A model generated the notes under the pieces. That model worked only from the letters and a program-made list of their open reading frames with translations. It was not told the origin of the DNA and ran no database searches. Source: an uncultured Nitrospiraceae bacterium (GTDB taxonomy: Bacteria > Nitrospirota > Thermodesulfovibrionia > Thermodesulfovibrionales > UBA9159). From it: a stretch of 33,461 bases of DNA. This document shows positions 1,984 to 33,403 of the stretch, piece after piece. Position 1 is the first letter of the stretch; the number at the start of each line of letters is the position of its first letter. The position numbers and the translations under genes were made by a program. The stretch covers positions 1-33,461 of the forward strand of contig CAMTVV010000156.1 in assembly GCA_947085305.1 (NCBI GenBank), written 5' to 3'.

Positions 1984-2001
1984 GAAAAATGGAAGCCTTC
2001 A

Positions 2002-2024
2002 GGGCGGGGGCACCCCGCCCCTAC
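2002..2024 (-). repeat. GTAG-family REP
   Basis: Minus strand GTAG followed by hairpin GGGCGGGG-TGC-CCCCGCCC. Confidence 0.75.
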
Positions 2025-2027
2025 AAA

Positions 2028-2362
2028 TATGCCCTCTGCTGACTTCTGTCTGCTCACCCGGTATGTCTCCATACAGGGCGCTACAGGGCTCATCATGAGG
2101 CGGTGTTTGTTTCGTGTTTCCCTTTGGGACTCATATCCGGTAACAGCTATCGGATATGCCGGGTTCTTGGTCAACCGGGTGGACTCTTTCCGGCCCTCTC
2201 TCGTGACTGTCCTGTCGCACGGCAAACAGATCTCCCCGGATTCGGTCACCCTTCCGCCCTTGCCTTCGGCTCGTACTTTTGGTAGTCTCCATTACTATGA
2301 ACACCTCCGGGTTCTCGTACAGGGGACTTTCACCCCATAAGCTCACGCCCGTGCCGGGCTAC
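2028..2362 (-). mobile_element. Group IIC(-attC) intron 5' remnant (domains I-III, no RT ORF)
   Basis: Minus strand starts GTAGCCCGGCACGGGCGTGAGCTTATGGGGTGAAAGTCCCC, contains CCGGGGAGATCTG and CAGAAGTCAGCAGAGGGCATA; follows TTGT of an attC bottom strand. Confidence 0.8.
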
Positions 2363-9983: not shown

Positions 9984-10160
9984 CTGAGCTAATGGGTGAA
10001 AGTCCCATCCTGACAATTGTCCGTAGCGGTCAGGTAGTTATATCTGGCATATAGGGAGGTAACAACCTATATGAAAGCCCAGAAGTAAACGGCCAGTCGG
10101 CTAAGCAGAGATGCTTAAGTCGGAACGATACAGGGGTCTAACAAAATGGCAAGCCTTAGC
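9980..10160 (+). mobile_element. Group II intron domain I fragment
   Basis: CTGAGCTAATGGGTGAAAGTCCCAT-CCTGAC...GTCAGGTAG and CATATAGG-GAGGTAACAA-CCTATATG hairpins typical of intron domain I; 5' GTGYG missing. Confidence 0.6.
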
Positions 10161-20907: not shown

Positions 20908-21570
20908 ATGATCAGCATAAAACTCGATGAAGTAAGATTTGATGAAGCCGTCAATGAGGCCATAACTGTTTTGCGCAGGGGGGGCATCATCGCCTATCCC
21001 ACCGAAACTTTCTACGGGCTCGGGGTGAAGTTCGACATGCCGGAATCCCTGCAGAGGCTTTATGACCTGAAAAAAAGGCCGGCGGAAAAGGCCATGCCCC
21101 TTATCATCGGCCACAGGGGATTGCTCTCCGAGGTAGTGCCTAAGGCATGGCTCGCTTCTCTCCCGCATGCAGCTCAGTCACTCATGGACAGGTTCTGGCC
21201 CGGCCCCCTCACTGTGCTTTTCCCTGCGAAGGAAGACCTCCCGGAATTTCTGACTGCCGGTACAGGAATGATTGCTGTGAGAGTCCCGGGAGAATCATTT
21301 GCCCTCCAACTGGCGAAAAAGACGGGCTTCCCCTTTACTTCAACCAGCGCGAACCTCTCCGGCACGCCTCCGGCAGTGAATGCCGGGGAGGTTATGCAAT
21401 ACTTTGGAAAACACCTCGACCTCCTCATTGACGGCAGTCAAACCCCCGGCGGTTTGCCGTCAACTATTGTTGATGTATCAGGGGCCGGGATAAGGATAAT
21501 TCGCGAGGGCGCCATAGACCGCAGGGAGATAGAAAATCACCTTGCGCAATGTTCGTCTGACCAGGGATGA
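20908..21570 (+). CDS. tsaC: L-threonylcarbamoyladenylate synthase (TsaC/Sua5); start uncertain
   Basis: YPTETFYGL, KKRP, FWPGPLT, AVRVP, STSANLSG, PSTIVD. Confidence 0.93.
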   Translation: MISIKLDEVRFDEAVNEAITVLRRGGIIAYPTETFYGLGVKFDMPESLQRLYDLKKRPAEKAMPLIIGHRGLLSEVVPKAWLASLPHAAQSLMDRFWPGPLTVLFPAKEDLPEFLTAGTGMIAVRVPGESFALQLAKKTGFPFTSTSANLSGTPPAVNAGEVMQYFGKHLDLLIDGSQTPGGLPSTIVDVSGAGIRIIREGAIDRREIENHLAQCSSDQG

Positions 21571-21592
21571 GAGAAGACCAACAAGGCACAGG

Positions 21593-23122
21593 ATGATCCT
21601 CATATACCCCCCTGTTGCTAAACCATCCGAACCCCCTGCCGGTATAGCACACCTGTCCGGTGCGCTGAATCAGCATGGAGTAACCCATAGCGTACTTGAT
21701 GCAAATATCGAGGGCCTCCTCCATCTCCTGCAGCGGCCTCACCGCGTATCTCGTGATTTCTCTGACAGGTGGACCCTTCGCGCTTTCCGTCATTGCGCAG
21801 ATAATATTCTTTCCCTTAGAAGGCAGGATACATACGGTAATTTTGACGGCTATAAGCGGACTGTCCTGGACGTGAACCGCGTCCTTGAATCATCGTCGGC
21901 ATCCGATGATATCACCATCGGTCTGGCAAACTATGAGGACCGTGAATTGTCTCCTTTAAAGAGCAAGGATCTCGTCAGGTCAGCTGAAGACCCTGAACGA
22001 AATCCCTTTTACCCATATTTTAAGAAGCGGCTTGCCGCGCTCATAGACGAGAAGAAGCCGACCGTGGTCGGCTTCTCGCTCAATTATCTGAGCCAGGCCC
22101 TCTGCACCTTTGCCATGACCGGCTTCATACGCAAAAGCTTTCCCGGAGTGAGGATTGTCCTCGGCGGCGGACTAGTCACCTCGTGGATGAAAAGACCAGA
22201 ATGGAAAAATCCCTTTGGAGGGCTGGTAGACCATCTCATTGCCGGTCCCGGGGAATTCCCATTGCTCTCCATGGCTGGTATTCATGATGTCAAAGATGGT
22301 TTTACGCCGGATTATTCTTCTCTCCCAACCAATGACTACCTCGCCCCCGGCAGCATCCTCCCCTACAGCGCTTCCAGGGGATGCTTCTGGCGCCGGTGCT
22401 CATTCTGCCCTGAAAGGGCTGAAGACAATCCCTATATTCCGGTTCCGGTGACCCGGGTCATCTCGGATATTCCAGAGATCACAAGGAAAACCGATTCCGT
22501 TCTGGTCCATTTCCTGGATAACGCCGTGAGCATGTCTCTCATGAGGGCGCTTTCAGAGACTGCCGGAGGCGTATCGTGGTACGGTTTCACCAGGATAACC
22601 AGGGAACTCACCGATATTGATTTCTGCATGACACTAAAGCGTTCGGGATGCGTAATGCTCAAGCTCGGTCTCGAATCCGGAGATCAGGGGGTACTGGACC
22701 GGATGCAGAAGGGCATAGACCTTGAGACCGCATCGCTGGCATTGCGCACGTTGAAAAGGGCAGGAATCGCGACCTATATCTATCTCCTCTTCGGCACCCC
22801 TTGGGAGACGCTATCCTCGGCAAGAAGGAGCCTCGAATTCACTGTGAGACACAGGGAAACCATCGGTTTTCTGAACCTTGCCATATTCAACATGCCTGTG
22901 TGCTGGTCTGGAGCAGAGCGGGTTGAGACCCGCAGTTTCTATGAAGCTGACCTCTCCCTCTATACTGATTTTCTTCACCCGGAGGGGTGGGACAGAAGAA
23001 GGGTAAGGTCATTTCTGGAGAACGAGTTCAAAAGTCAGAGGGATGTCTCCTCCATCCTGAAAAAAGACCCTCCCCTCTTCACCTCGAACCACGCGCCTTT
23101 TTTTGTGATGAATCGCGGATGA
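21593..23122 (+). CDS. B12-binding radical SAM protein
   Basis: LIYPP...PPAGIAHL N-terminus, VLGGG, SRGCFWRRCSFC, GLESG. Confidence 0.88.
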   Translation: MILIYPPVAKPSEPPAGIAHLSGALNQHGVTHSVLDANIEGLLHLLQRPHRVSRDFSDRWTLRAFRHCADNILSLRRQDTYGNFDGYKRTVLDVNRVLESSSASDDITIGLANYEDRELSPLKSKDLVRSAEDPERNPFYPYFKKRLAALIDEKKPTVVGFSLNYLSQALCTFAMTGFIRKSFPGVRIVLGGGLVTSWMKRPEWKNPFGGLVDHLIAGPGEFPLLSMAGIHDVKDGFTPDYSSLPTNDYLAPGSILPYSASRGCFWRRCSFCPERAEDNPYIPVPVTRVISDIPEITRKTDSVLVHFLDNAVSMSLMRALSETAGGVSWYGFTRITRELTDIDFCMTLKRSGCVMLKLGLESGDQGVLDRMQKGIDLETASLALRTLKRAGIATYIYLLFGTPWETLSSARRSLEFTVRHRETIGFLNLAIFNMPVCWSGAERVETRSFYEADLSLYTDFLHPEGWDRRRVRSFLENEFKSQRDVSSILKKDPPLFTSNHAPFFVMNRG

Positions 23123-23555
23123 TATTATGTGTATCCTGCGGGTAGTGACGTTTCTGATGACAATAAGCGCGGCATGTACATTCCAGTAGTGCATCAGATG
23201 ATCGCCGTTCAGGAAAGAATCCTCACAGTACACCGCAGCCCCGCGCGTCCCAGTCATTCTGCGGAGTACAAATCTAAATAGTTACAACGGTTGATAGCAC
23301 CAAGGTCTGCCGCAAGAACAACACCGAAGCCCCAATGCGCCCCCCTCGAAAATAGTCCCTATTTATTTGCTCCGAGAGAAAAATCAGATTGATATTCCTA
23401 TATTTCTAAAGTAGCAACCTTAGATATTAACCGGCGTGGAATATTTGTTAATGTCCTTTTCAAAAGCATTCTTGATCAGAGAGAGGAGTCCTTAGATTCC
23501 AAAGGGGGAACGAGAGGGAGACGCGAGGAAGGCACGACACGAGAGGAAGACGTGC

Positions 23556-23585
23556 TTGACTATTTCCCTCCGGGGGTGCTATAAA
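23556..23585 (+). promoter_or_regulatory. Sigma70 promoter of riboswitch leader
   Basis: TTGACT, 18 nt spacer, TGc-TATAAA; start falls just before P1. Confidence 0.7.
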
Positions 23586-23590
23586 AGGAA

Positions 23591-23689
23591 CAGATTATCG
23601 AAAAGAGCAAACTATCCGAAAGGATAGGGCGCAAAGACCCGGTCTAACACCTGAAGAGGTCATGACAGCGGGTCTGCCGAAATAATCTG
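23591..23689 (+). ncRNA. GEMM-I riboswitch, A20 variant (predicted 3',3'-cGAMP / GEMM-Ib)
   Basis: P1 CAGATTAT-CG/CG-ATAATCTG, AGCAAA, P2 CTATCC-GAAA-GGATAG, GCGCAAAG, P3 with CTAA/ATG receptor, ACAGCGG...TGCC. Confidence 0.9.
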
Positions 23690-23700
23690 GAACAGCCGGC

Positions 23701-23730
23701 AACCCATACCTTTTCAGGTATGGGTTTTTT
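23701..23730 (+). terminator. Intrinsic terminator (riboswitch expression platform)
   Basis: AACCCATACC-TTTTCA-GGTATGGGTT followed by a T run. Confidence 0.85.
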
Positions 23731-23757
23731 GTTTGGATGAGCGCCGGGAGGGAGCAG

Positions 23758-24867
23758 ATGGACATTGAAGAGACGGCCATACTGGTCGTTGATGACGACC
23801 CTTCCATTCTTGACTACCTTTCAATATTACTTAGGAAGAATAACTATCCTGTTATTCTCTGCAGCACCGCAAAGGAAGCACTAGCTCAAATACAAGACAA
23901 CTTGATCGCCTTTGTATTGACCGATATCAAGATGCCGGGAGTCTCGGGGATTGAGCTCCTGGAAGAAATTCATCGTCTTAATTTTGAAATACCGGTTATC
24001 TTGATGACCGGTCAGGCGGAACTCGATACTGCTATTGAGGCAGTAAATAAAGGTGCCTTTAGCTTCATCACGAAACCTTTCAATCGGGAATATCTCATCC
24101 GTTCAGTGGAGAAGGCGGTCAGACACTACCAGCTGATTAGAGCGGAAAAGAATTATAAGTACATGCTTGAAAATACGGTAATACAGAAGACACGAGAACT
24201 TGCGGATGTCGCTTTGATGGCGAGCAAGCTAAGCTTGGAGATCATTCAGCGTTTATCGGCGGTTGCTGAATTCAGGGACAGCTACACGGCTGCACACATA
24301 TCGAGAATCGGTCACTACTCAAGGAAGATTGCCGAGGTTATGGATATGCGTGAGGACTTTGTTGAAGGCATAGCTGTTGCAAGCTCTTTACAGGACATAG
24401 GGAAGATAGGGATACCTGATAAGATACTTTTGAAGGAAAGTCGTCTTACTGAGGAGGAATATCAGATAATAAAAGGACATACTGTCTTCGGCAGTAAAAT
24501 ACTCGAGAACTCGTCTCATCCGACCATACAGATGGCAACCTCCATTGCATTGAATCATCATGAAAGGTGGGAGGGGAAGGGATATCCGCGAGGGTTAAAG
24601 GGCAAAGAAATACCGATTGAGGCGAGGATAGTTAAGCTCGTTGACCAATATGATGCATTAAGAAGCAAACGGTCATACAAGCCATCGCTCAGTCATCAGG
24701 AAGCTTTCAGAATAATAACGAAGGGAGATGGAAGGAGCGAACCGGAACATTTTGCCCCAGAGGTGCTGGACGCATTCATAGAAAATGCATCACATTTTGA
24801 TCACATATTTAATTCTCATCAGGATTGCTCGCAGACTGTTTTTTCAACGCACCCGAAGGCACAATAG
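23758..24867 (+). CDS. Response regulator with HD-GYP domain (RpfG-like), HD replaced by QD
   Basis: REC: VDDD, TDIKMP, MTG, KPF. HD-GYP: RDSYTAAH, QDIGKIG, HHERWEGKGYP, DQYDAL...RSYK. Confidence 0.92.
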   Translation: MDIEETAILVVDDDPSILDYLSILLRKNNYPVILCSTAKEALAQIQDNLIAFVLTDIKMPGVSGIELLEEIHRLNFEIPVILMTGQAELDTAIEAVNKGAFSFITKPFNREYLIRSVEKAVRHYQLIRAEKNYKYMLENTVIQKTRELADVALMASKLSLEIIQRLSAVAEFRDSYTAAHISRIGHYSRKIAEVMDMREDFVEGIAVASSLQDIGKIGIPDKILLKESRLTEEEYQIIKGHTVFGSKILENSSHPTIQMATSIALNHHERWEGKGYPRGLKGKEIPIEARIVKLVDQYDALRSKRSYKPSLSHQEAFRIITKGDGRSEPEHFAPEVLDAFIENASHFDHIFNSHQDCSQTVFSTHPKAQ

Positions 24868-24868
24868 T

Positions 24869-25241
24869 ATGAAGAAGCTTAATTGTTGGGAATTGCAGAT
24901 TCCCTGCGGCAAGACCGCAGGGAATCTTAATGTAATGAATTTTTATCATTATATTCGCTCGCTAACCATTTAAGAAATGCGGGATGGAGCTGGGAGGGGA
25001 GAACTCTTCCGTCCTGGGGGTATGTCCTGCGTGGGTCGCCATAATGCTCGATGGCGTTCACGGCGGGACAAATGCAGGCAGGGCGTGCTGGGTAATAGCG
25101 GGTACTATGTGCAAAGGACAGGTGCAGGGCACGTTTGCCCAGAAATACAGGGACTGTGCCGTATGCAATTTTTATAAAGCTGTACGGGAAGAAGAAGGTG
25201 ACAACTTTCAGATGACAATAAACCTGCTTGGACTTGTTTAA
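24869..25241 (+). pseudogene. Two-CW domain protein interrupted by a 76-nt insertion
   Basis: Removing 24893-24968 restores MKKLNCWE-FKKCG...CPA...GRACWVIAGTMC...CAVCNFY (98 aa). Confidence 0.85.
24893..24968. mobile_element. Palindromic MITE-like insert, possibly derived from IS200/IS605 ends
   Basis: 13-bp perfect stem AGATTCCCTGCGG-CAAGA-CCGCAGGGAATCT plus AT-rich tail; ATT at both junctions. Confidence 0.7.
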
Positions 25242-25521
25242 GAATAGTCTCTTCTTCTGAGCCGCACATTTCCCGTTACCGGTTCTTCCGGTAATAAACA
25301 CTGCAAAAGGTTCCTTCACAGTTTCCGCAATCTCTCAGAATTATTTCCTGCGGGTGAACGATGCATCATTATTAAAGGTCTCCAGGGTGGCGGCGCCTGC
25401 CATTATCGATGGCTGGATTGGAAGCAATAGCGGCTATCACAGAAGAGGTAATCCTCTGCCATTGCACGGTTTCTTTTACTTTTTTGCTATAATAGAGTTG
25501 TTTTGTGAGACAGGAGAGAAC

Positions 25522-26589
25522 ATGAAGGCTCTAATCTTAAGCGGAGGGAAAGGGACCCGTCTGAGGCCCCTCACCTATACTACCGCAAAACAGCTTGTGC
25601 CTGTGGCAAACAAACCGATCCTCGGCTATGTCATTGACCACATAAAAGATGCCGGAATAAAGGATATTGGAGTGATCATATCCCCTGATACCGGAGATGA
25701 GGTCAAGCGATACATTGACGGCGGCAGGAGATGGGGAATACGGGTGACGTTCATACCACAGGCCGAGCCCCTCGGCCTTGCCCACGCGGTAATGAGCGCC
25801 CGGGATTTTCTCAAAGACGATGATTTCGTAATGTACCTTGGTGACAATCTCCTGAGCCACGGGGTGAAGGATGCCCTGAAAAAATTCAGGCGGGAGTCTC
25901 CCCAGGCATTGATCTTCCTGAAGGAGGTTGACAACCCCAGGCAGTTCGGAGTGGCCAAGCTCGACCGTAAAGGGCATATTGTGCGGTTGATCGAAAAACC
26001 GAAGAGGCCTCCGTCAAACCTGGCGCTGGTGGGCGTCTATATATTCTCCAGGGAGATCCATGATGCCATCTCGCGGATCAAGCCGTCCTTCAGGGGAGAA
26101 CTGGAAATCACCGATGCAATACAGGAACTGATTCACATGGGCTATGCCGTAAGGAGCGAGATCCTTGACGGCTGGTGGCTCGATACAGGGAAAAAGGACA
26201 GTATCCTCCAGGCGAACACCGTTGTTCTTGACGAATACATTAAGAGGGATATTCAAGGTTCTGTGGACAAAAAGAGCCAGATAACAGGTAGGGTGACCAT
26301 AGAGAAAGGCGCCGTGGTGAAGAACAGTATCATCAGAGGGCCTGCCATCATCGGAAAGCAGACCGAGATCGTGAACTCTTTTATCGGGCCCTTTACCAGC
26401 ATCGGCGACGGGGTCACCATACTGAACTCCGTTGTCGAACATTCAGTGGTCTTGAATAATGCCTTCCTCTCAGGGATCGAGAGGCTTGAGGACAGCCTCA
26501 TTGGGAAAAGCTCAAGGGTCATAAAAAATGATTCCCAGCATAAAGCCCTTCGTCTCATGGTGGGCGATGACTCAACAATAGAGGTCTGA
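25522..26589 (+). CDS. rfbA: Glucose-1-phosphate thymidylyltransferase, long form
   Basis: LSGGKGTRLRP, KQLVPVANKP, RGELEITD, WLDTG, C-terminal hexapeptide repeats; AGGAG RBS and TGcTATAAT upstream. Confidence 0.94.
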   Translation: MKALILSGGKGTRLRPLTYTTAKQLVPVANKPILGYVIDHIKDAGIKDIGVIISPDTGDEVKRYIDGGRRWGIRVTFIPQAEPLGLAHAVMSARDFLKDDDFVMYLGDNLLSHGVKDALKKFRRESPQALIFLKEVDNPRQFGVAKLDRKGHIVRLIEKPKRPPSNLALVGVYIFSREIHDAISRIKPSFRGELEITDAIQELIHMGYAVRSEILDGWWLDTGKKDSILQANTVVLDEYIKRDIQGSVDKKSQITGRVTIEKGAVVKNSIIRGPAIIGKQTEIVNSFIGPFTSIGDGVTILNSVVEHSVVLNNAFLSGIERLEDSLIGKSSRVIKNDSQHKALRLMVGDDSTIEV

Positions 26590-26590
26590 A

Positions 26591-27049
26591 GTGTTCGTTG
26601 ACGGAGAAATCTCCGGGGTTCTGATCCGGAAATTCAATGAATTTCACGACCGGCGCGGCTGGCTCTCTGAATTATACCGCATTGATGAAGCAGGAGAGTA
26701 CCGGCCCGCCATGACATACCTGTCAGTGACCAATCCAGGAGCCACCCGGGGACCCCACGAACACATTGAACAGACCGACTACTTTTGCTTCATGGGCGCC
26801 TTTGCTCTTTACCTCTGGGATAACAGGAATGACTCGCAGACTTATGGAAAGAAAATGGTAATAGAAAACGCTGACCGGCTAATCGTGACGGTGCCTCCGG
26901 GCATTGTCCATGCCTACAAGAATTCCGGGGAGAGCGAGGGGCTCGTCCTGAATTTTCCGGACAGGCTCTACGCTGGCTGGGGAAAAAAGGAGAAAGTGGA
27001 CGAGGTGAGATACGAAAACGATCCGGAAAGCCCTTTCAGGGTGGAGTAA
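26591..27049 (+). CDS. rfbC: dTDP-4-dehydrorhamnose 3,5-epimerase family
   Basis: DRRGWL, RGPHEH, VPPGIVHAY. Confidence 0.88.
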   Translation: MFVDGEISGVLIRKFNEFHDRRGWLSELYRIDEAGEYRPAMTYLSVTNPGATRGPHEHIEQTDYFCFMGAFALYLWDNRNDSQTYGKKMVIENADRLIVTVPPGIVHAYKNSGESEGLVLNFPDRLYAGWGKKEKVDEVRYENDPESPFRVE

Positions 27050-27078
27050 TGAAACATTCATACCGCTTGACACAAACC

Positions 27079-27134
27079 GTCACCCTGAACTCGTTTCAGG
27101 GTCTCATTAGATGCTGAAACAAGTTCAGCATGAC
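27079..27134. repeat. REP-like bipartite palindromic element (GTCA...TGAC type)
   Basis: GTCACCCTGAACTCGTTTCAGGGTCT and inverted partner AGATGCTGAAACAAGTTCAGCATGAC. Confidence 0.8.
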
Positions 27135-27154
27135 AAATTGAGAGGTATTTTCGG

Positions 27155-28153
27155 ATGAAGCTTCTTATTACAGGCGGCTGCGGCTTTATCGGCTCGCATT
27201 TTATCCGACATGTCCTCAATAAGTACACTGCCTATTCCATTATCAACCTCGATGCCCTCACCTATGCAGGAAATCCTGAGAACCTGAAAGATGTCCAGGG
27301 GAACGGAAGATACACCTTTGTGAAAGGGAAAATCGAAGATGCAGCTCTCATAAAAGAGCTCGTCCGGGACGTTGACGCCGTTGTCCACTTTGCCGCAGAA
27401 AGCCATGTGGACAGGTCCATTGCAGATGCTCAGCCGTTCCTCATGACCAATATCATAGGGACGCATACCCTCATGGAAGCGGCAAAAAATGCGCTGGTAA
27501 AGAGATTTGTCCATATCTCAACGGATGAGGTCTACGGCGCCCTCGGAGAAGAGGGGAAGTTCATGGAGGATACCCCCCTCAGGCCCAATTCTCCCTATTC
27601 GGCGTCAAAGGCATCCGCGGATATGCTTGTGAGGGCTTTTTATGAGACCTTTGGATTTCCCGCGCTCATCGTCAGACCTTCCAACAATTACGGGCCATAC
27701 CAGTATCCGGAGAAATTCATCCCCCTCATGATCACGAACCTTTTCGAAAACAGGCCGGTCCCGGTCTACGGCAAAGGGAAGAATGTGAGGGACTGGCTCT
27801 TTGTGGAAGACAACTGCGGCGCCATAGATTTGATCCTGCATAAAGGGAAAGTGGGTGAGGCGTATAATGTGGGCGGCAATGCCGAGAAGAGAAATATCGA
27901 CATCGTGAGAAAGGTCCTCGAGGTCATGGGGAAGGACGAAGCCCTCATCACCTTTGTGAAAGACAGGCCGGGGCACGATTATCGCTACGCCCTTGATACC
28001 TCAAAGATAGAGATGGAACTGGGCTGGAAGCCATCAGTGGATATAGACGACGGACTTATTAAAACCGTCCAGTGGTATAGAGACAATGAGTGGTGGTGGA
28101 GGCCGCTGAAGGAAAGATTATCCTCTGAGAGTAAGGTGATACAATATCCCTGA
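27155..28153 (+). CDS. rfbB: dTDP-glucose 4,6-dehydratase
   Basis: GGCGFIG, AAESHVDRSI, STDEVYG, YSASK, DRPGHD. Confidence 0.96.
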   Translation: MKLLITGGCGFIGSHFIRHVLNKYTAYSIINLDALTYAGNPENLKDVQGNGRYTFVKGKIEDAALIKELVRDVDAVVHFAAESHVDRSIADAQPFLMTNIIGTHTLMEAAKNALVKRFVHISTDEVYGALGEEGKFMEDTPLRPNSPYSASKASADMLVRAFYETFGFPALIVRPSNNYGPYQYPEKFIPLMITNLFENRPVPVYGKGKNVRDWLFVEDNCGAIDLILHKGKVGEAYNVGGNAEKRNIDIVRKVLEVMGKDEALITFVKDRPGHDYRYALDTSKIEMELGWKPSVDIDDGLIKTVQWYRDNEWWWRPLKERLSSESKVIQYP

Positions 28154-31498: not shown

Positions 31499-33349
31499 AT
31501 GGTCAAGGATTTCATGCTCCACGGAAGCATTGGACCCTTCGAATTCTATGTCTTTGTGGCCGGAGCAAACGTCAGCAATACCTATTTTTACGAAGAAGCA
31601 GGCCCGAACATACGGTTTTTTTCGAGAGGAAATGAGCTCACGTTGTCCCCTGAAGGCGTCCATTACAAGGGCACCGGGGGTAATTTCTGCGAATACATGT
31701 TCGGCGTCGAGAAACCCTTCAAGGATCTCATTAAAAAGGACGTCCTGAATCGCCTCGTCATGTTCGGGGCTTTTCTCGATAAGACGGAAAGGCTCATCTT
31801 CACCAATGATACCGGGGGTTCAGAGGCGTTCCACCGGCTCTTCCTCCTCGGCCACGCCGTAAAGAACTACTATTTCTTCGTTTCCTCCGACGATAAAAGC
31901 GAATCCAGGAAGAGGCAGCGGCAGATATTGAGGTCTGTGGGGAAGTTCCTGAAGAGAACCGATCTTATTGCGGAAGACCGGGATGCGGAACTGGTGAACG
32001 GCCTGGTGAAGGAGCTCAACGAGCCCCGTTCCACGGTCTTTGTTTTTAAGCTCGTCCATTCCGAGAACCTGGAATATTCACGGGAATTCGAGGCGTTCTA
32101 TGAAGACAAGCGCATGCTGTTGCCCGAAGAAGAGGCCCGCCTGAATGCGGTTGCCATGAAATATCATATTGACGCTTACCAGCAGGAAAGAATGAAGATC
32201 GACAGCATGTACCGGCACGGCGAGAACAAGAGCATTGTGGATGAATACCGGGATATACTCCTTGACATCGCGAATAAGGAGACCGCAGAGCATTCGGAAC
32301 TGGCGAAACTCCACCGGCTGAGAACATTGAGCATAAGGAACAATATCCCGGGCATCCTCTTTGATACCCTCGATGATCTCCTTCTCAAGGACAAGGACGT
32401 GCCCGCCATGGAAGAGCCCGAATACCTCAAGGAAGCGCGGGCGATCCTGGAGAACCTCTTTTTTAAAGCTCCTTCTCTCAAGAGGCATATCATCAGGGAG
32501 GACATCGCTAAACTGATCATGGCAAAGCATATTGCCCATTCACACAGCGACATGGGCTTTGAGCGGGTGCTCCTCGATATCGGCAAGGCGTGCGATGAGT
32601 TCGCCAGGGAGAACAACGACTTCAGTATCTTCGAGGAGCTCAGCTCCATTATCACCTACTTCGACCGCTACGATAACATCCATTCCACAATGAGCAGGAT
32701 CGCATTCATGGAACATCTTGAACTGACCGAGAATGCTCTGAGAAGCCTTGTGGGGAATAAGAAGGAATTCGACGCCCTGGACAAGCCTCTTTTCAAGGAG
32801 ATCTTCATCAAGGAGCTCCTCGCGAATAAGTACATCACCTCCTTCGGAAAGAAACGGATAAAAGCCCTCAATGACGGCATCGGAAAGGTGCTCAGGGGCG
32901 ACGCATCCCTGAGGGATCTGGTAATGGAGCTCCATAAAATTAGTGAAGAGGAGAGGGTGTACAAATATATCCGCACTTCTTTAAAGGAAAGGCTTCACGA
33001 GTTATATACCTCGCTGAATATCAAGGAAGAAATGCTGAGAATCCGTAAGGAGATCGAAGCGGAACTGAGCAAGGAAGGAATAGCATGGGAGGTTCGTAAA
33101 AATCTCTTCGACAAGGCGCTCCTTGACCTCAAGAAGGAATCCTACTACCTCTGTCATCTCCTGCCTATCATCATGAGGGACAAAGACCTCGCGCTCAGGG
33201 AGGACTTCCTGAACAACAGCGGCCTCGACCGCTTCTACATCGAGGGGCTTGAAAAGGAATATCTGAAAGACAACGGATTCAGCTCCGCCATTCTCGAGTC
33301 GGTAAGGGAAGACCAGTTTTCAGGGGCTGGAGGCGGCGAGCGGATTTGA
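31499..33349 (+). CDS. Conserved protein, TIGR04442-like family
   Basis: 616-aa ORF with RFFSRGNE, GGNFCEYMFG, NRLVMFGA, YQQERMKID, REDFL..SGLDRFY; family recognised from memory. Confidence 0.75.
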   Translation: MVKDFMLHGSIGPFEFYVFVAGANVSNTYFYEEAGPNIRFFSRGNELTLSPEGVHYKGTGGNFCEYMFGVEKPFKDLIKKDVLNRLVMFGAFLDKTERLIFTNDTGGSEAFHRLFLLGHAVKNYYFFVSSDDKSESRKRQRQILRSVGKFLKRTDLIAEDRDAELVNGLVKELNEPRSTVFVFKLVHSENLEYSREFEAFYEDKRMLLPEEEARLNAVAMKYHIDAYQQERMKIDSMYRHGENKSIVDEYRDILLDIANKETAEHSELAKLHRLRTLSIRNNIPGILFDTLDDLLLKDKDVPAMEEPEYLKEARAILENLFFKAPSLKRHIIREDIAKLIMAKHIAHSHSDMGFERVLLDIGKACDEFARENNDFSIFEELSSIITYFDRYDNIHSTMSRIAFMEHLELTENALRSLVGNKKEFDALDKPLFKEIFIKELLANKYITSFGKKRIKALNDGIGKVLRGDASLRDLVMELHKISEEERVYKYIRTSLKERLHELYTSLNIKEEMLRIRKEIEAELSKEGIAWEVRKNLFDKALLDLKKESYYLCHLLPIIMRDKDLALREDFLNNSGLDRFYIEGLEKEYLKDNGFSSAILESVREDQFSGAGGGERI

Positions 33350-33403
33350 ACCGCTGCATAAAGGTTTTGCAGACCTCCCCCTTAGCCACTTGGGTACGCC
33401 GCC
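33328..33403 (-). tRNA. tRNA-Cys (GCA)
   Basis: GGCGGCG acceptor stem, CT-GCA-AA loop, TTCAAAT T-loop, U73 discriminator, encoded CCA; 76 nt. Confidence 0.97.

Follow-up and report, generated by a model that had tools for sequence, protein, structure and literature searches.

An adenine-20 GEMM-I riboswitch upstream of a REC-HD-GYP and two-CW operon in the Thermodesulfovibrionales

In a 33,461-nt stretch of DNA from an uncultured Nitrospiraceae bacterium (contig CAMTVV010000156.1 of assembly GCA_947085305.1, positions 1 to 33,461; this whole stretch is referred to here as the window), a GEMM-I riboswitch was identified upstream of two tightly linked genes, which specify a receiver-HD-GYP (REC-HD-GYP) response regulator and a small protein with two CW motifs (two-CW), respectively. 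The aptamer carries an adenine at the position equivalent to position 20 of the Vc2 aptamer of Vibrio cholerae, and this A20 GEMM-I riboswitch is real and conserved. By analogy with characterized RNAs, the aptamer may accept cyclic diguanylate (c-di-GMP) as well as 3',3'-cGAMP (cyclic GMP-AMP), a reading to which we assign a probability of roughly 0.45. The riboswitch would govern the REC-HD-GYP (c-di-GMP-type) and two-CW operon by transcription termination, and folding together with three orthologous sequences makes it rather likely that its expression platform is an OFF switch. A preliminary description of the locus had proposed a circuit by which cGAMP would regulate either its own phosphodiesterase or its receptor; the A20 aptamer and a candidate synthase stand as parts of such a circuit, whereas cGAMP selectivity and the cognate phosphodiesterase are not supported.

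The aptamer, its pocket bases and the expression platform

The aptamer was called with Rfam covariance models (cmscan), and base positions were read from the RF01051 alignment. RF01051 matched positions 23596-23681 over its complete length (model positions 1-87 of 87) with a score of 76.5 bits (gathering score 35; E 1.5e-13) and was the best model of clan CL00126 at this location, in agreement with the full GEMM-I aptamer claimed previously and with the comparison against c-di-GMP-I and variant models that had been suggested for it. The alignment likewise bore out the bases that had been assigned by eye, namely A at position 20 (23606), in place of the canonical c-di-GMP contact G20, together with a retained C92 (23677); position 20 contacts the alpha nucleobase of the ligand. 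The G21-C46 flanking pair, raised at that time as a caveat, is also present (G23607-C23632). The aptamer was the single GEMM-I match of its own genome (2.09 Mb, 247 contigs, 93.5% complete).

The predicted fold consists of a P1/P2/P3 three-way junction with A47 and C92 in place, in which P2 is capped by a GAAA tetraloop and the tail has the sequence G23676-C23677-C23678. P1 is formed by pairing of CAGAUUAU (23591-98) with AUAAUCUG (23682-89), extended by the pairs C23599-G23679 and G23600-C23678, so that its 5' strand comprises 23591-23600 and its 3' strand 23678-23689. The fold energy of P1/P2/P3 was calculated to be -36 to -37 kcal/mol (ViennaRNA).

To compare strains, positions 23500-25300 were aligned with contigs from four public sequencing runs, each of a different study; two of these were ~99-100% identical to the window, the other two represented strains of ~96% identity with ~50 differences each, and one of the four runs may be the source sample of the metagenome-assembled genome (MAG) itself. 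A23606 was identical in the contigs of all four runs, and A at position 20 was also found in two orthologous leaders, L011 (the same stretch as L028 of genome G013) and L049 (from G014, another genus of the same family), the latter carrying P1 substitutions that preserve pairing. A23606 is therefore not a sequencing error, a possibility that had been named as one that would undo the original proposal.

Upstream of the aptamer, a sigma-70-type promoter is so placed that the transcript is predicted to begin no more than a few bases from the 5' strand of P1, and the alignment, read by eye, showed TTGAC[T/A]-N18-TATAAA in both L011 and L049; the promoter was omitted by the scan tool because this tool demands T at the sixth -10 position. 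Downstream of the aptamer, an intrinsic terminator of 11 pairs followed by a T-run was observed. Both elements had been recognized previously, and both were upheld here, the promoter with the same layout in L011 and L049.

In the terminator, ACCUUUUCAGG (23708-18), which spans the 5' arm together with the loop, was shown to be complementary to the distal portion of P3, and the resulting putative antiterminator duplex, in its extended form, was calculated at -29.2, -28.5 and -26.9 kcal/mol for the window, L011 and L049, respectively. The stretch CCCATACC...TTTTTTGTTTG, running from the terminator stem core through the T-run, is identical in the three sequences, with variable flanks, and the three versions of the P3 strand vary only by purine exchanges opposite U; since these changes are purine-for-purine opposite U, all antiterminator pairs are kept in the three orthologues. 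For nascent RNA of L011 and L049 reaching the terminator loop, the minimum-energy fold was the antiterminator. An alternative antiterminator, in which GAAAAG of J1/2 pairs with CUUUUC of the terminator loop, comprises only 6 bp and was ranked below the 11-bp P3 pairing, which is preferred because it is maintained in all three orthologues. Without ligand, 23650-60 would thus pair with 23708-18 and allow read-through, while ligand binding would lock the aptamer and P3, permit the terminator to form and silence the operon. Among the sequencing runs listed, no RNA-derived data were found for the locus.

Table 1. Coordinates of the features discussed (window positions unless a contig is given)
Feature	Position	Strand	Details
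Sigma-70-type promoter	23557-23585	+	TTGACT (23557-62), 18-nt spacer, TG-n-TATAAA (23580-85); read from sequence
GEMM-I (c-di-GMP-I) aptamer with P1	23591-23689	+	RF01051 match 23596-23681 and ViennaRNA fold
A at Vc2 position 20	23606	+	RF01051 model position 11; unpaired base directly before first P2 pair
P2 and A47	23607-23633	+	Closing pairs G21-C46 (23607/23632) and C22-G45 (23608/23631); A47 = 23633
Proposed antiterminator 5' strand CCUGAAGAGGU	23650-23660	+	Distal part of P3; 11-bp duplex with 23708-23718
C92 equivalent	23677	+	RF01051 model position 83; Watson-Crick partner of ligand G-beta
Intrinsic terminator	23701-23736	+	11-bp stem 23701-23726, then T-run UUUUUUGUUU
REC-HD-GYP response regulator, 369 aa	23758-24867	+	ATG 23758 behind ribosome-binding site GGGAGGGAG
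Gln codon CAG at HD-motif His position	24391-24393	+	Strain and orthologue comparison
First eight codons of two-CW gene (MKKLNCWE)	24869-24892	+	Fits family consensus M..K.NCWEFKKCG
76-nt repeat with 13-bp hairpin, inside two-CW gene	24892-24967	+	Second copy in own genome; run depth
Remainder of two-CW gene, FKKCG... to stop	24969-25241	+	NF045718 match; longest ATG open reading frame 24984-25241, 85 aa
Hypr-type GAF-GGDEF protein, 461 aa	C152:5003-6385		Pfam GAF and GGDEF; best PDB relative 6D9M

The regulated genes and the state of the operon

The longest open reading frame of the HD-GYP gene begins at 23737, while the L011 orthologue begins at the MDIEE equivalent, matching the ATG at 23758. 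The deduced protein was shown to contain a Response_reg (8.4e-28) and an HD_5 (2.5e-35) domain according to Pfam, scored 227.7 bits against the NCBIfam model of the NosR-family response regulator c-di-GMP phosphodiesterases, which is under the cut-off of 400, and has PmGH (4mcw/4mdz; E 7.4e-42) as its best relative in the PDB. Its receiver domain seems, by eye, to retain the usual conserved acidic, Thr and Lys residues. The closest public relatives are encoded by an uncultured Nitrospiraceae bacterium MAG (84%) and a Thermodesulfovibrionales bacterium MAG (66%), and the L011 protein is 84% identical to that of the window.

The HD-GYP domain carries HHERWEGKGYP, of the HHExxDGxGYP type, and RSYK, which aligns with RPYK (R314/K317) of PmGH, whereas the HD metal-binding dyad is replaced by QD (LQDIGK); the atypical REC-HD-GYP of the preliminary description is thus substantiated. 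According to the accessible text of 10.1101/600031, Rxx(K/R) recognizes guanine, Rxx(Q/N) makes PmxA and Bd2325 selective for cGAMP, and RxxR HD-GYP proteins of V. cholerae degrade 3',3'-cGAMP. By motif, the window protein is of the c-di-GMP type. The earlier suggestion that cGAMP controls its own phosphodiesterase is therefore not supported, as the protein reads RSYK rather than RxxQ/N and the His of its HD motif is Gln. Among the nine HD_5 matches of the own genome, six read RxxK/R, two LSYK or NSYK and one has no clear motif by eye; RxxQ/N was found in none of these nine domains. The same genome yielded five PilZ domains and no EAL domain.

The Gln codon was compared between strains and orthologues. 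In runs X6 and X7 the base at 24393 is T, which makes the codon CAT (His), runs X1 and X2 retain CAG, and HD is intact in the orthologues L011, L012 and L049, which indicates that the QD change is real and confined to the strain of the window.

The second gene belongs to a family of proteins of ~100 aa with seven conserved Cys and the motifs NCWEFKKCG and GRACW, paralogues of which are numerous in the order (present in 119 of the 151 related genomes, with up to 16 copies each). In the window, NF045718 was matched at 87.5 bits (cut-off 35) over profile positions 12-80 only, and a six-frame match covered profile positions 6-80 at 24969-25193; the two CW motifs are not in one frame, the first being split off by a 76-nt repeat. 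The arms of the repeat hairpin are GATTCCCTGCGG..CCGCAGGGAATC (DNA fold of -19.9 kcal/mol). Elsewhere in the own genome, the repeat recurs in an intergenic position (C132:1010-1085), where exactly 76 nt match with 92% identity, and in the sequencing runs it coincides with a depth spike, while several metagenome contigs match this stretch only, with unrelated flanks. The second copy, the depth spike and the partially matching contigs indicate that 24892-24967 is a small repeat that frameshifts the two-CW gene. Of the earlier statement that two tightly linked genes are present, with a two-CW gene as the second, the linkage was retained and the integrity of the second gene was not. The copy on C132 is followed by a further similar hairpin, and hairpin-only fragments were observed in at least six other contigs.

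An AlphaFold2 model of the two-CW protein had a mean pLDDT (predicted local distance difference test) of 86.8, and comparison of this fold with the PDB returned no solved-structure match (Foldseek, best E 8.2; VIA-align wide, best Z 2.3). No Pfam match was obtained for the family, the ESM Atlas contained it as unnamed clusters and one cluster automatically named 'putative metal dependent phosphohydrolase', and a search of the available literature yielded no paper on it.

With the HD His replaced by Gln and the two-CW gene split by the repeat, the output arm is probably weakened in this strain. A more far-reaching explanation, which we regard as possible but tentative, is that the locus is a decaying remnant here, i.e. 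that the riboswitch folds while the operon lacks a working output. The His-to-Gln change, which is present in this strain and near-identical contigs only with His in relatives, and the frameshift by the 76-nt repeat fit such decay. So does the variation between strains, as the strain of run X7 has 19 other bases in place of 24845-25195 (351 bp) and is consequently without the two-CW gene, and L011 retains a two-CW remnant only, with a contiguous MKKLNYWEFK; a contig of run X6 diverges at 24844. The own genome, moreover, has one GEMM-I aptamer against six and ten in two genomes of the same genus. Conversely, the HD-GYP frame is open over 369 codons, with the other metal ligands and GYP kept, comparison with the orthologues shows no change in promoter, aptamer or terminator, and, as Gln can still ligate metals, the protein may act by binding or catalyse slowly. 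Decay would in any case concern the output alone and is compatible with any ligand.

The genes flanking the locus are unrelated to signalling, with a B12-binding radical SAM enzyme upstream (21542-23122) and a dTDP-sugar set downstream (25354-28153), which comprises a long-form RmlA, a cupin/epimerase-like protein and a dTDP-glucose 4,6-dehydratase. Elsewhere in the window, group II intron domains were matched at 1994-2080 (- strand; RF01998, 57.9 bits) and 9990-10130 (+ strand; RF02003, 58.6 bits), and a tRNA gene was found near its end (33331-33403, - strand; RF00005, 62.6 bits).

A candidate cGAMP synthase and GEMM-I aptamers across the order

Nine GGDEF domains were identified in the own genome, six of which have the canonical Asp (five by regular expression and one by eye), one has Ser and two are degenerate. 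The GGDEF domain encoded on contig C152 reads GHLVGS, compared with GH..GD in the six canonical domains, and also contains RYGGDEF and an RxxD I-site. Its best PDB match was 6D9M (E 3e-48; next match, 2.9e-32), in which T4 lysozyme (T4L) is fused to a 'response receiver sensor diguanylate cyclase, GAF domain-containing'. As given in the accessible text of PMC6456294, Hypr GGDEF enzymes are recognized by Ser/Thr348, a GGDEF motif instead of GGEEF and a cross-dimer residue other than Arg; Tyr and Ser of 6D9M are 44 residues apart, which equals the spacing of Tyr304 and Ser348 in GacA of G. metallireducens. The C152 domain has Ser at both of these positions (N-S-R, compared with N-Y-R of 6D9M) and carries all three Hypr signatures.

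This protein is conserved among the relatives, as a match at E<=1e-40 was obtained in 120 of 151 related genomes and, among the matches listed, at least ~100 span most of the protein at E<=1e-95; all 30 orthologues that were read retain Ser348 and GGDEF and have either Ser or Thr as the cross-dimer residue. Synthesis by a CD-NTase of the DncV kind was rejected, as no SMODS (PF18144)/CD-NTase match was obtained in the own genome (93.5% complete), which leaves the Hypr GGDEF as the sole candidate cGAMP synthase found. The search for a synthase proposed in the preliminary description, whose negative outcome would have counted against a cGAMP circuit, thus yielded a candidate Hypr GGDEF and no CD-NTase. 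In addition to c-di-GMP, the host very probably makes cGAMP. The contig was assigned to the Thermodesulfovibrionales (Nitrospirota), and a limited literature search brought up no study of Hypr enzymes or cGAMP in Thermodesulfovibrio or Nitrospirota, in keeping with the earlier surmise that cGAMP signalling may be little described in this lineage.

On contig C152 (L004, 468-2865, - strand), the Hypr GGDEF gene is directly followed by a gene for a 336-aa Ras/Arf-like GTPase and is preceded by the C-terminal end of a SecA-like one. The N-terminus of this GTPase presumably resembles MglA. Gliding of Bdellovibrio is under the control of its Hypr enzyme Bd0367 (PMC9140294).

To examine the diversity of GEMM-I pockets, 151 related genomes were searched, 70 of which were shown to have at least one GEMM-I aptamer and up to 17 each. 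The pockets of 74 distinct aptamers from 42 genomes were read; this set is not a random sample, as it consists of the 35 best-scoring matches, genomes chosen from the same family or because they lack a Hypr orthologue and three selected on account of the genes beside them. G20/G21-C46 was observed in 33 of the 74 aptamers, G20/C21-G46 in 21 (plus 3 unparsed aptamers that seem alike by eye), A20/G21-C46, the class of the window, in 13, and A20/C21-G46, the combination of Gs1761 of Geobacter, in 4, bringing A20 to a total of 17/74. The last class comprises L090 and L092 (same-genus G002), L096 (G009) and L107 (G015), as confirmed by alignments; within the order, some aptamers are therefore nearer in their pocket to Geobacter than that of the window is. 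These four precede genes for a 141-aa protein, an FAD (flavin adenine dinucleotide)-type oxidoreductase, a 273-aa protein and a protein with a Tat signal, respectively (labels assigned by eye). The commonest aptamer in the family of the window is G20/C21-G46 (21/74; L085-L112, also L083/L084 of G067).

Six of nine aptamers from relatives (L041, L085, L090, L107, L150 and L153) score best with RF03167 (c-di-GMP-I-GGC). This assignment was rejected as evidence of a changed pocket, as these aptamers retain A next to the closing pair of P2, on its 3' side in the alignment order, where the model has G; RF03167 apparently wins because P3 is shorter rather than because the pocket is altered.

Aptamers of the window class precede HD-GYP orthologues (window, G013 and G014), genes for secreted repeat proteins and two-CW genes. 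An intact two-CW gene was located within 1.5 kb downstream of 5/13 A20/G21-C46 aptamers (in addition to the broken copy of the window), compared with 1/33 G20/G21-C46 and, by motif, 0/21 G20/C21-G46 aptamers, one divergent case being recognized by eye. Two of the five positives and the divergent case had been fetched because they adjoin a two-CW gene, without which the figures are 4/11 versus 1/33 and 0/20, and one genus accounts for three of the two-CW-positive genomes. The idea that two-CW genes are generally preceded by GEMM-I was rejected, as none of the 30 best-scoring two-CW loci has a GEMM-I aptamer within 1.5 kb; GEMM-I control is therefore limited to a minority of two-CW paralogues. 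The own genome (2.09 Mb) has one GEMM-I aptamer and one (broken) two-CW gene, and in the larger same-genus genomes G001 and G002 (2.8-3.0 Mb) the aptamers number 6 and 10 and the two-CW matches 3 and 4, respectively.

An operon of a PilZ gene (94-95 aa; motifs RRHTRV and DASSSG) and a two-CW gene was found behind a G20 aptamer in G031 (L153) and behind an A20 aptamer in G128 (L154). The occurrence of both kinds of aptamer before like operons suggests that they answer an overlapping signal. An association between A20 and Hypr across genomes was also considered, with A20 present in 0/7 aptamers of the four genomes that lack a full-length Hypr orthologue (G046, G085, G145 and G067) compared with 17/67 elsewhere, and was rejected, as the sample is too small and too related.

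Ligand range and comparison with known systems

The pair beside position 20 of Vc2 is taken here to be G21-C46. As Vc2 G20A shares A20 and this pair, the window pocket (A20/G21-C46/A47/C92) equals that of a bispecific mutant. In the accessible text of PMC6140456, which is the source of all affinities given here, wild-type Vc2 binds c-di-GMP in the picomolar range and cGAMP at 10 uM, and dissociation constants for c-di-GMP and cGAMP are 53 and 120 nM for Vc2 G20A, 30 and 463 nM for Cbe 1-2, which has a natural A20, and 660 and 0.53 nM for Gs1761, respectively. The previous assertion that A20/C92 marks cGAMP-preferring riboswitches was consequently too strong, since Vc2 G20A and Cbe 1-2 bind both messengers and only Gs1761 is selective. 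P2 of Gs1761 begins with C15-G40 beside its key adenine A14 (PMC6274999); the window aptamer has the A20 and retained C92 of GEMM-Ib riboswitches, and G23607-C23632 in place of the C-G pair of Gs1761.

If the aptamer has this dual range and the platform is an OFF switch, the operon would behave as a latch, in which low messenger keeps the degrading enzyme on and high messenger switches the same enzyme off, the ligand repressing rather than inducing the enzyme because the platform looks OFF. As the cell has ordinary diguanylate cyclases as well as a Hypr GGDEF, either c-di-GMP or cGAMP could throw this latch.

Several points weigh against the dual-ligand OFF switch. For the nascent RNA of the window, the minimum-energy fold is the GAAAAG/CUUUUC pairing (-39.1 versus -37.1 kcal/mol for the antiterminator), and the complete leader favours aptamer plus terminator (-53.5 kcal/mol), so that the OFF logic depends on kinetics. 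The changes in the antiterminator fit pairing but are not compensatory, with three sequences compared. The dual ligand range is drawn by analogy from two other RNAs, Vc2 G20A and Cbe 1-2, and P1 may contribute to GEMM-I selectivity, the determinants of which are left open by the authors in the accessible text of PMC6140456. In addition, the comparison of PilZ operons consists of a single pair that is alike by gene content, and cGAMP is a predicted product of the C152 Hypr GGDEF.

An alternative and, in our view, doubtful explanation is that c-di-GMP is the sole relevant ligand and A20 an affinity-tuning or neutral substitution before a c-di-GMP phosphodiesterase gene; the locus would then represent an ordinary GEMM-I riboswitch. 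The published affinities are compatible with it, as c-di-GMP binding persists in Vc2 G20A despite the drop from picomolar to 53 nM and Cbe 1-2 favours c-di-GMP 15-fold (PMC6140456, accessible text), and the genes behind A20 aptamers are of the c-di-GMP type, being an RxxK HD-GYP and PilZ. The PilZ and two-CW operons of G031 and G128 and the frequency of A20, which is a common variant in the order, point in the same direction. Against this explanation, the Hypr GGDEF conserved in the genome and the order implies that cGAMP is probably made, a response to cGAMP would be expected of an A20 pocket that, in Vc2 G20A, binds this messenger at ~100 nM, and A20 is fixed across orthologous leaders and strains.

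The original proposal of a cGAMP-selective GEMM-Ib riboswitch, by which cGAMP would control its own phosphodiesterase or receptor, is unlikely: although A20 and C92 are present, the C152 enzyme carries all three published signatures, the own genome is without a Geobacter-like GEMM-Ib aptamer, which makes the window aptamer its only candidate cGAMP sensor, and RxxR HD-GYP proteins of V. cholerae do cleave 3',3'-cGAMP (10.1101/600031, accessible text), the pair beside A20 is G-C whereas selective Gs1761 has C15-G40, A20/C21-G46 aptamers exist in relatives and that of the window is not one of them, the HD-GYP protein lacks RxxQ/N, A20 alone yields bispecific binding (PMC6140456, accessible text), and an OFF-looking platform misfits the induction of a degrading enzyme by its substrate.

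Should the dual-ligand aptamer respond to cGAMP, riboswitch-based cGAMP sensing would extend beyond Geobacter and its relatives into the Nitrospirota, and the A20/G21-C46, A20/C21-G46 and G20/C21-G46 aptamers of one order would constitute a natural series for selectivity beyond position 20, a question left open by the nuclear magnetic resonance study, as far as the accessible text of PMC6140456 extends. The comparative data name a conserved Hypr GGDEF clade and the two-CW family as testable parts of a regulon. A wider proposition, which we consider rather unlikely, is that the Thermodesulfovibrionales, outside the lineages where the pathway has been described, run a complete Hypr/cGAMP pathway with two kinds of A20 aptamer, one having the Geobacter-like A20/C21-G46 pocket and that of the window being a dual-input OFF switch that repeatedly controls two-CW together with HD-GYP or PilZ genes; if true, crosstalk between c-di-GMP and cGAMP would be wired in this way. 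Wider leads are the Hypr GGDEF clade in the Thermodesulfovibrionales, the four pocket classes within one order and the two-CW genes behind A20 aptamers.

When compared with known systems, the candidate synthase resembles GacA (PDB 6D9M; the paper gives 5VS9) in GHLVGS, RYGGDEF, RxxD and a non-Arg cross-dimer residue, with 6D9M as its best PDB match by 16 orders of magnitude, but differs in that the cross-dimer residue of C152-type proteins is Ser or Thr rather than Tyr and in that its N-terminal 140 residues are not recognized as a receiver by Pfam. The regulated protein shares the combination of a REC or sensor domain and HD-GYP with PmGH (4MCW/4MDZ), PA4781 (4R8Z) and PmxA/Bd2325. Alignment with PmGH matches HHExxDGxGYP, RxxK and the His and Asp ligands further downstream to the window protein, which, however, has Gln at the HD-motif His in this strain and Tyr at Glu185 of the PmGH trinuclear site; the RxxQ/N signature sets PmxA and Bd2325 apart from it.

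With respect to the RNA, Vc2 G20A has the same RF01051 fold, A20 and C92, together with what we take to be the same G21-C46 pair, but is an engineered mutant, whereas the window aptamer is natural, from the Nitrospirota and known from sequence. Cbe 1-2, which is from a Firmicute, likewise has the RF01051 fold, a natural A20 and a retained C92, a likeness that covers the fold, A20 and C92. The Geobacter GEMM-Ib aptamers Gs1761 and Gm0970 correspond to that of the window in A14 (position 20), C75 (C92) and the co-occurrence of a Hypr GGDEF (GacA), and the G-C followed by P1 in the window fits J1/3 G74-C75 of Gs1761. In contrast, Gs1761 has C15-G40 beside A14 where the window aptamer has G-C, and the Geobacter riboswitches govern genes for extracellular electron transfer, whereas that of the window precedes an HD-GYP gene; the Geobacter pilM aptamer is described as an ON switch (PMC9262584, accessible text), while the platform of the window looks OFF.

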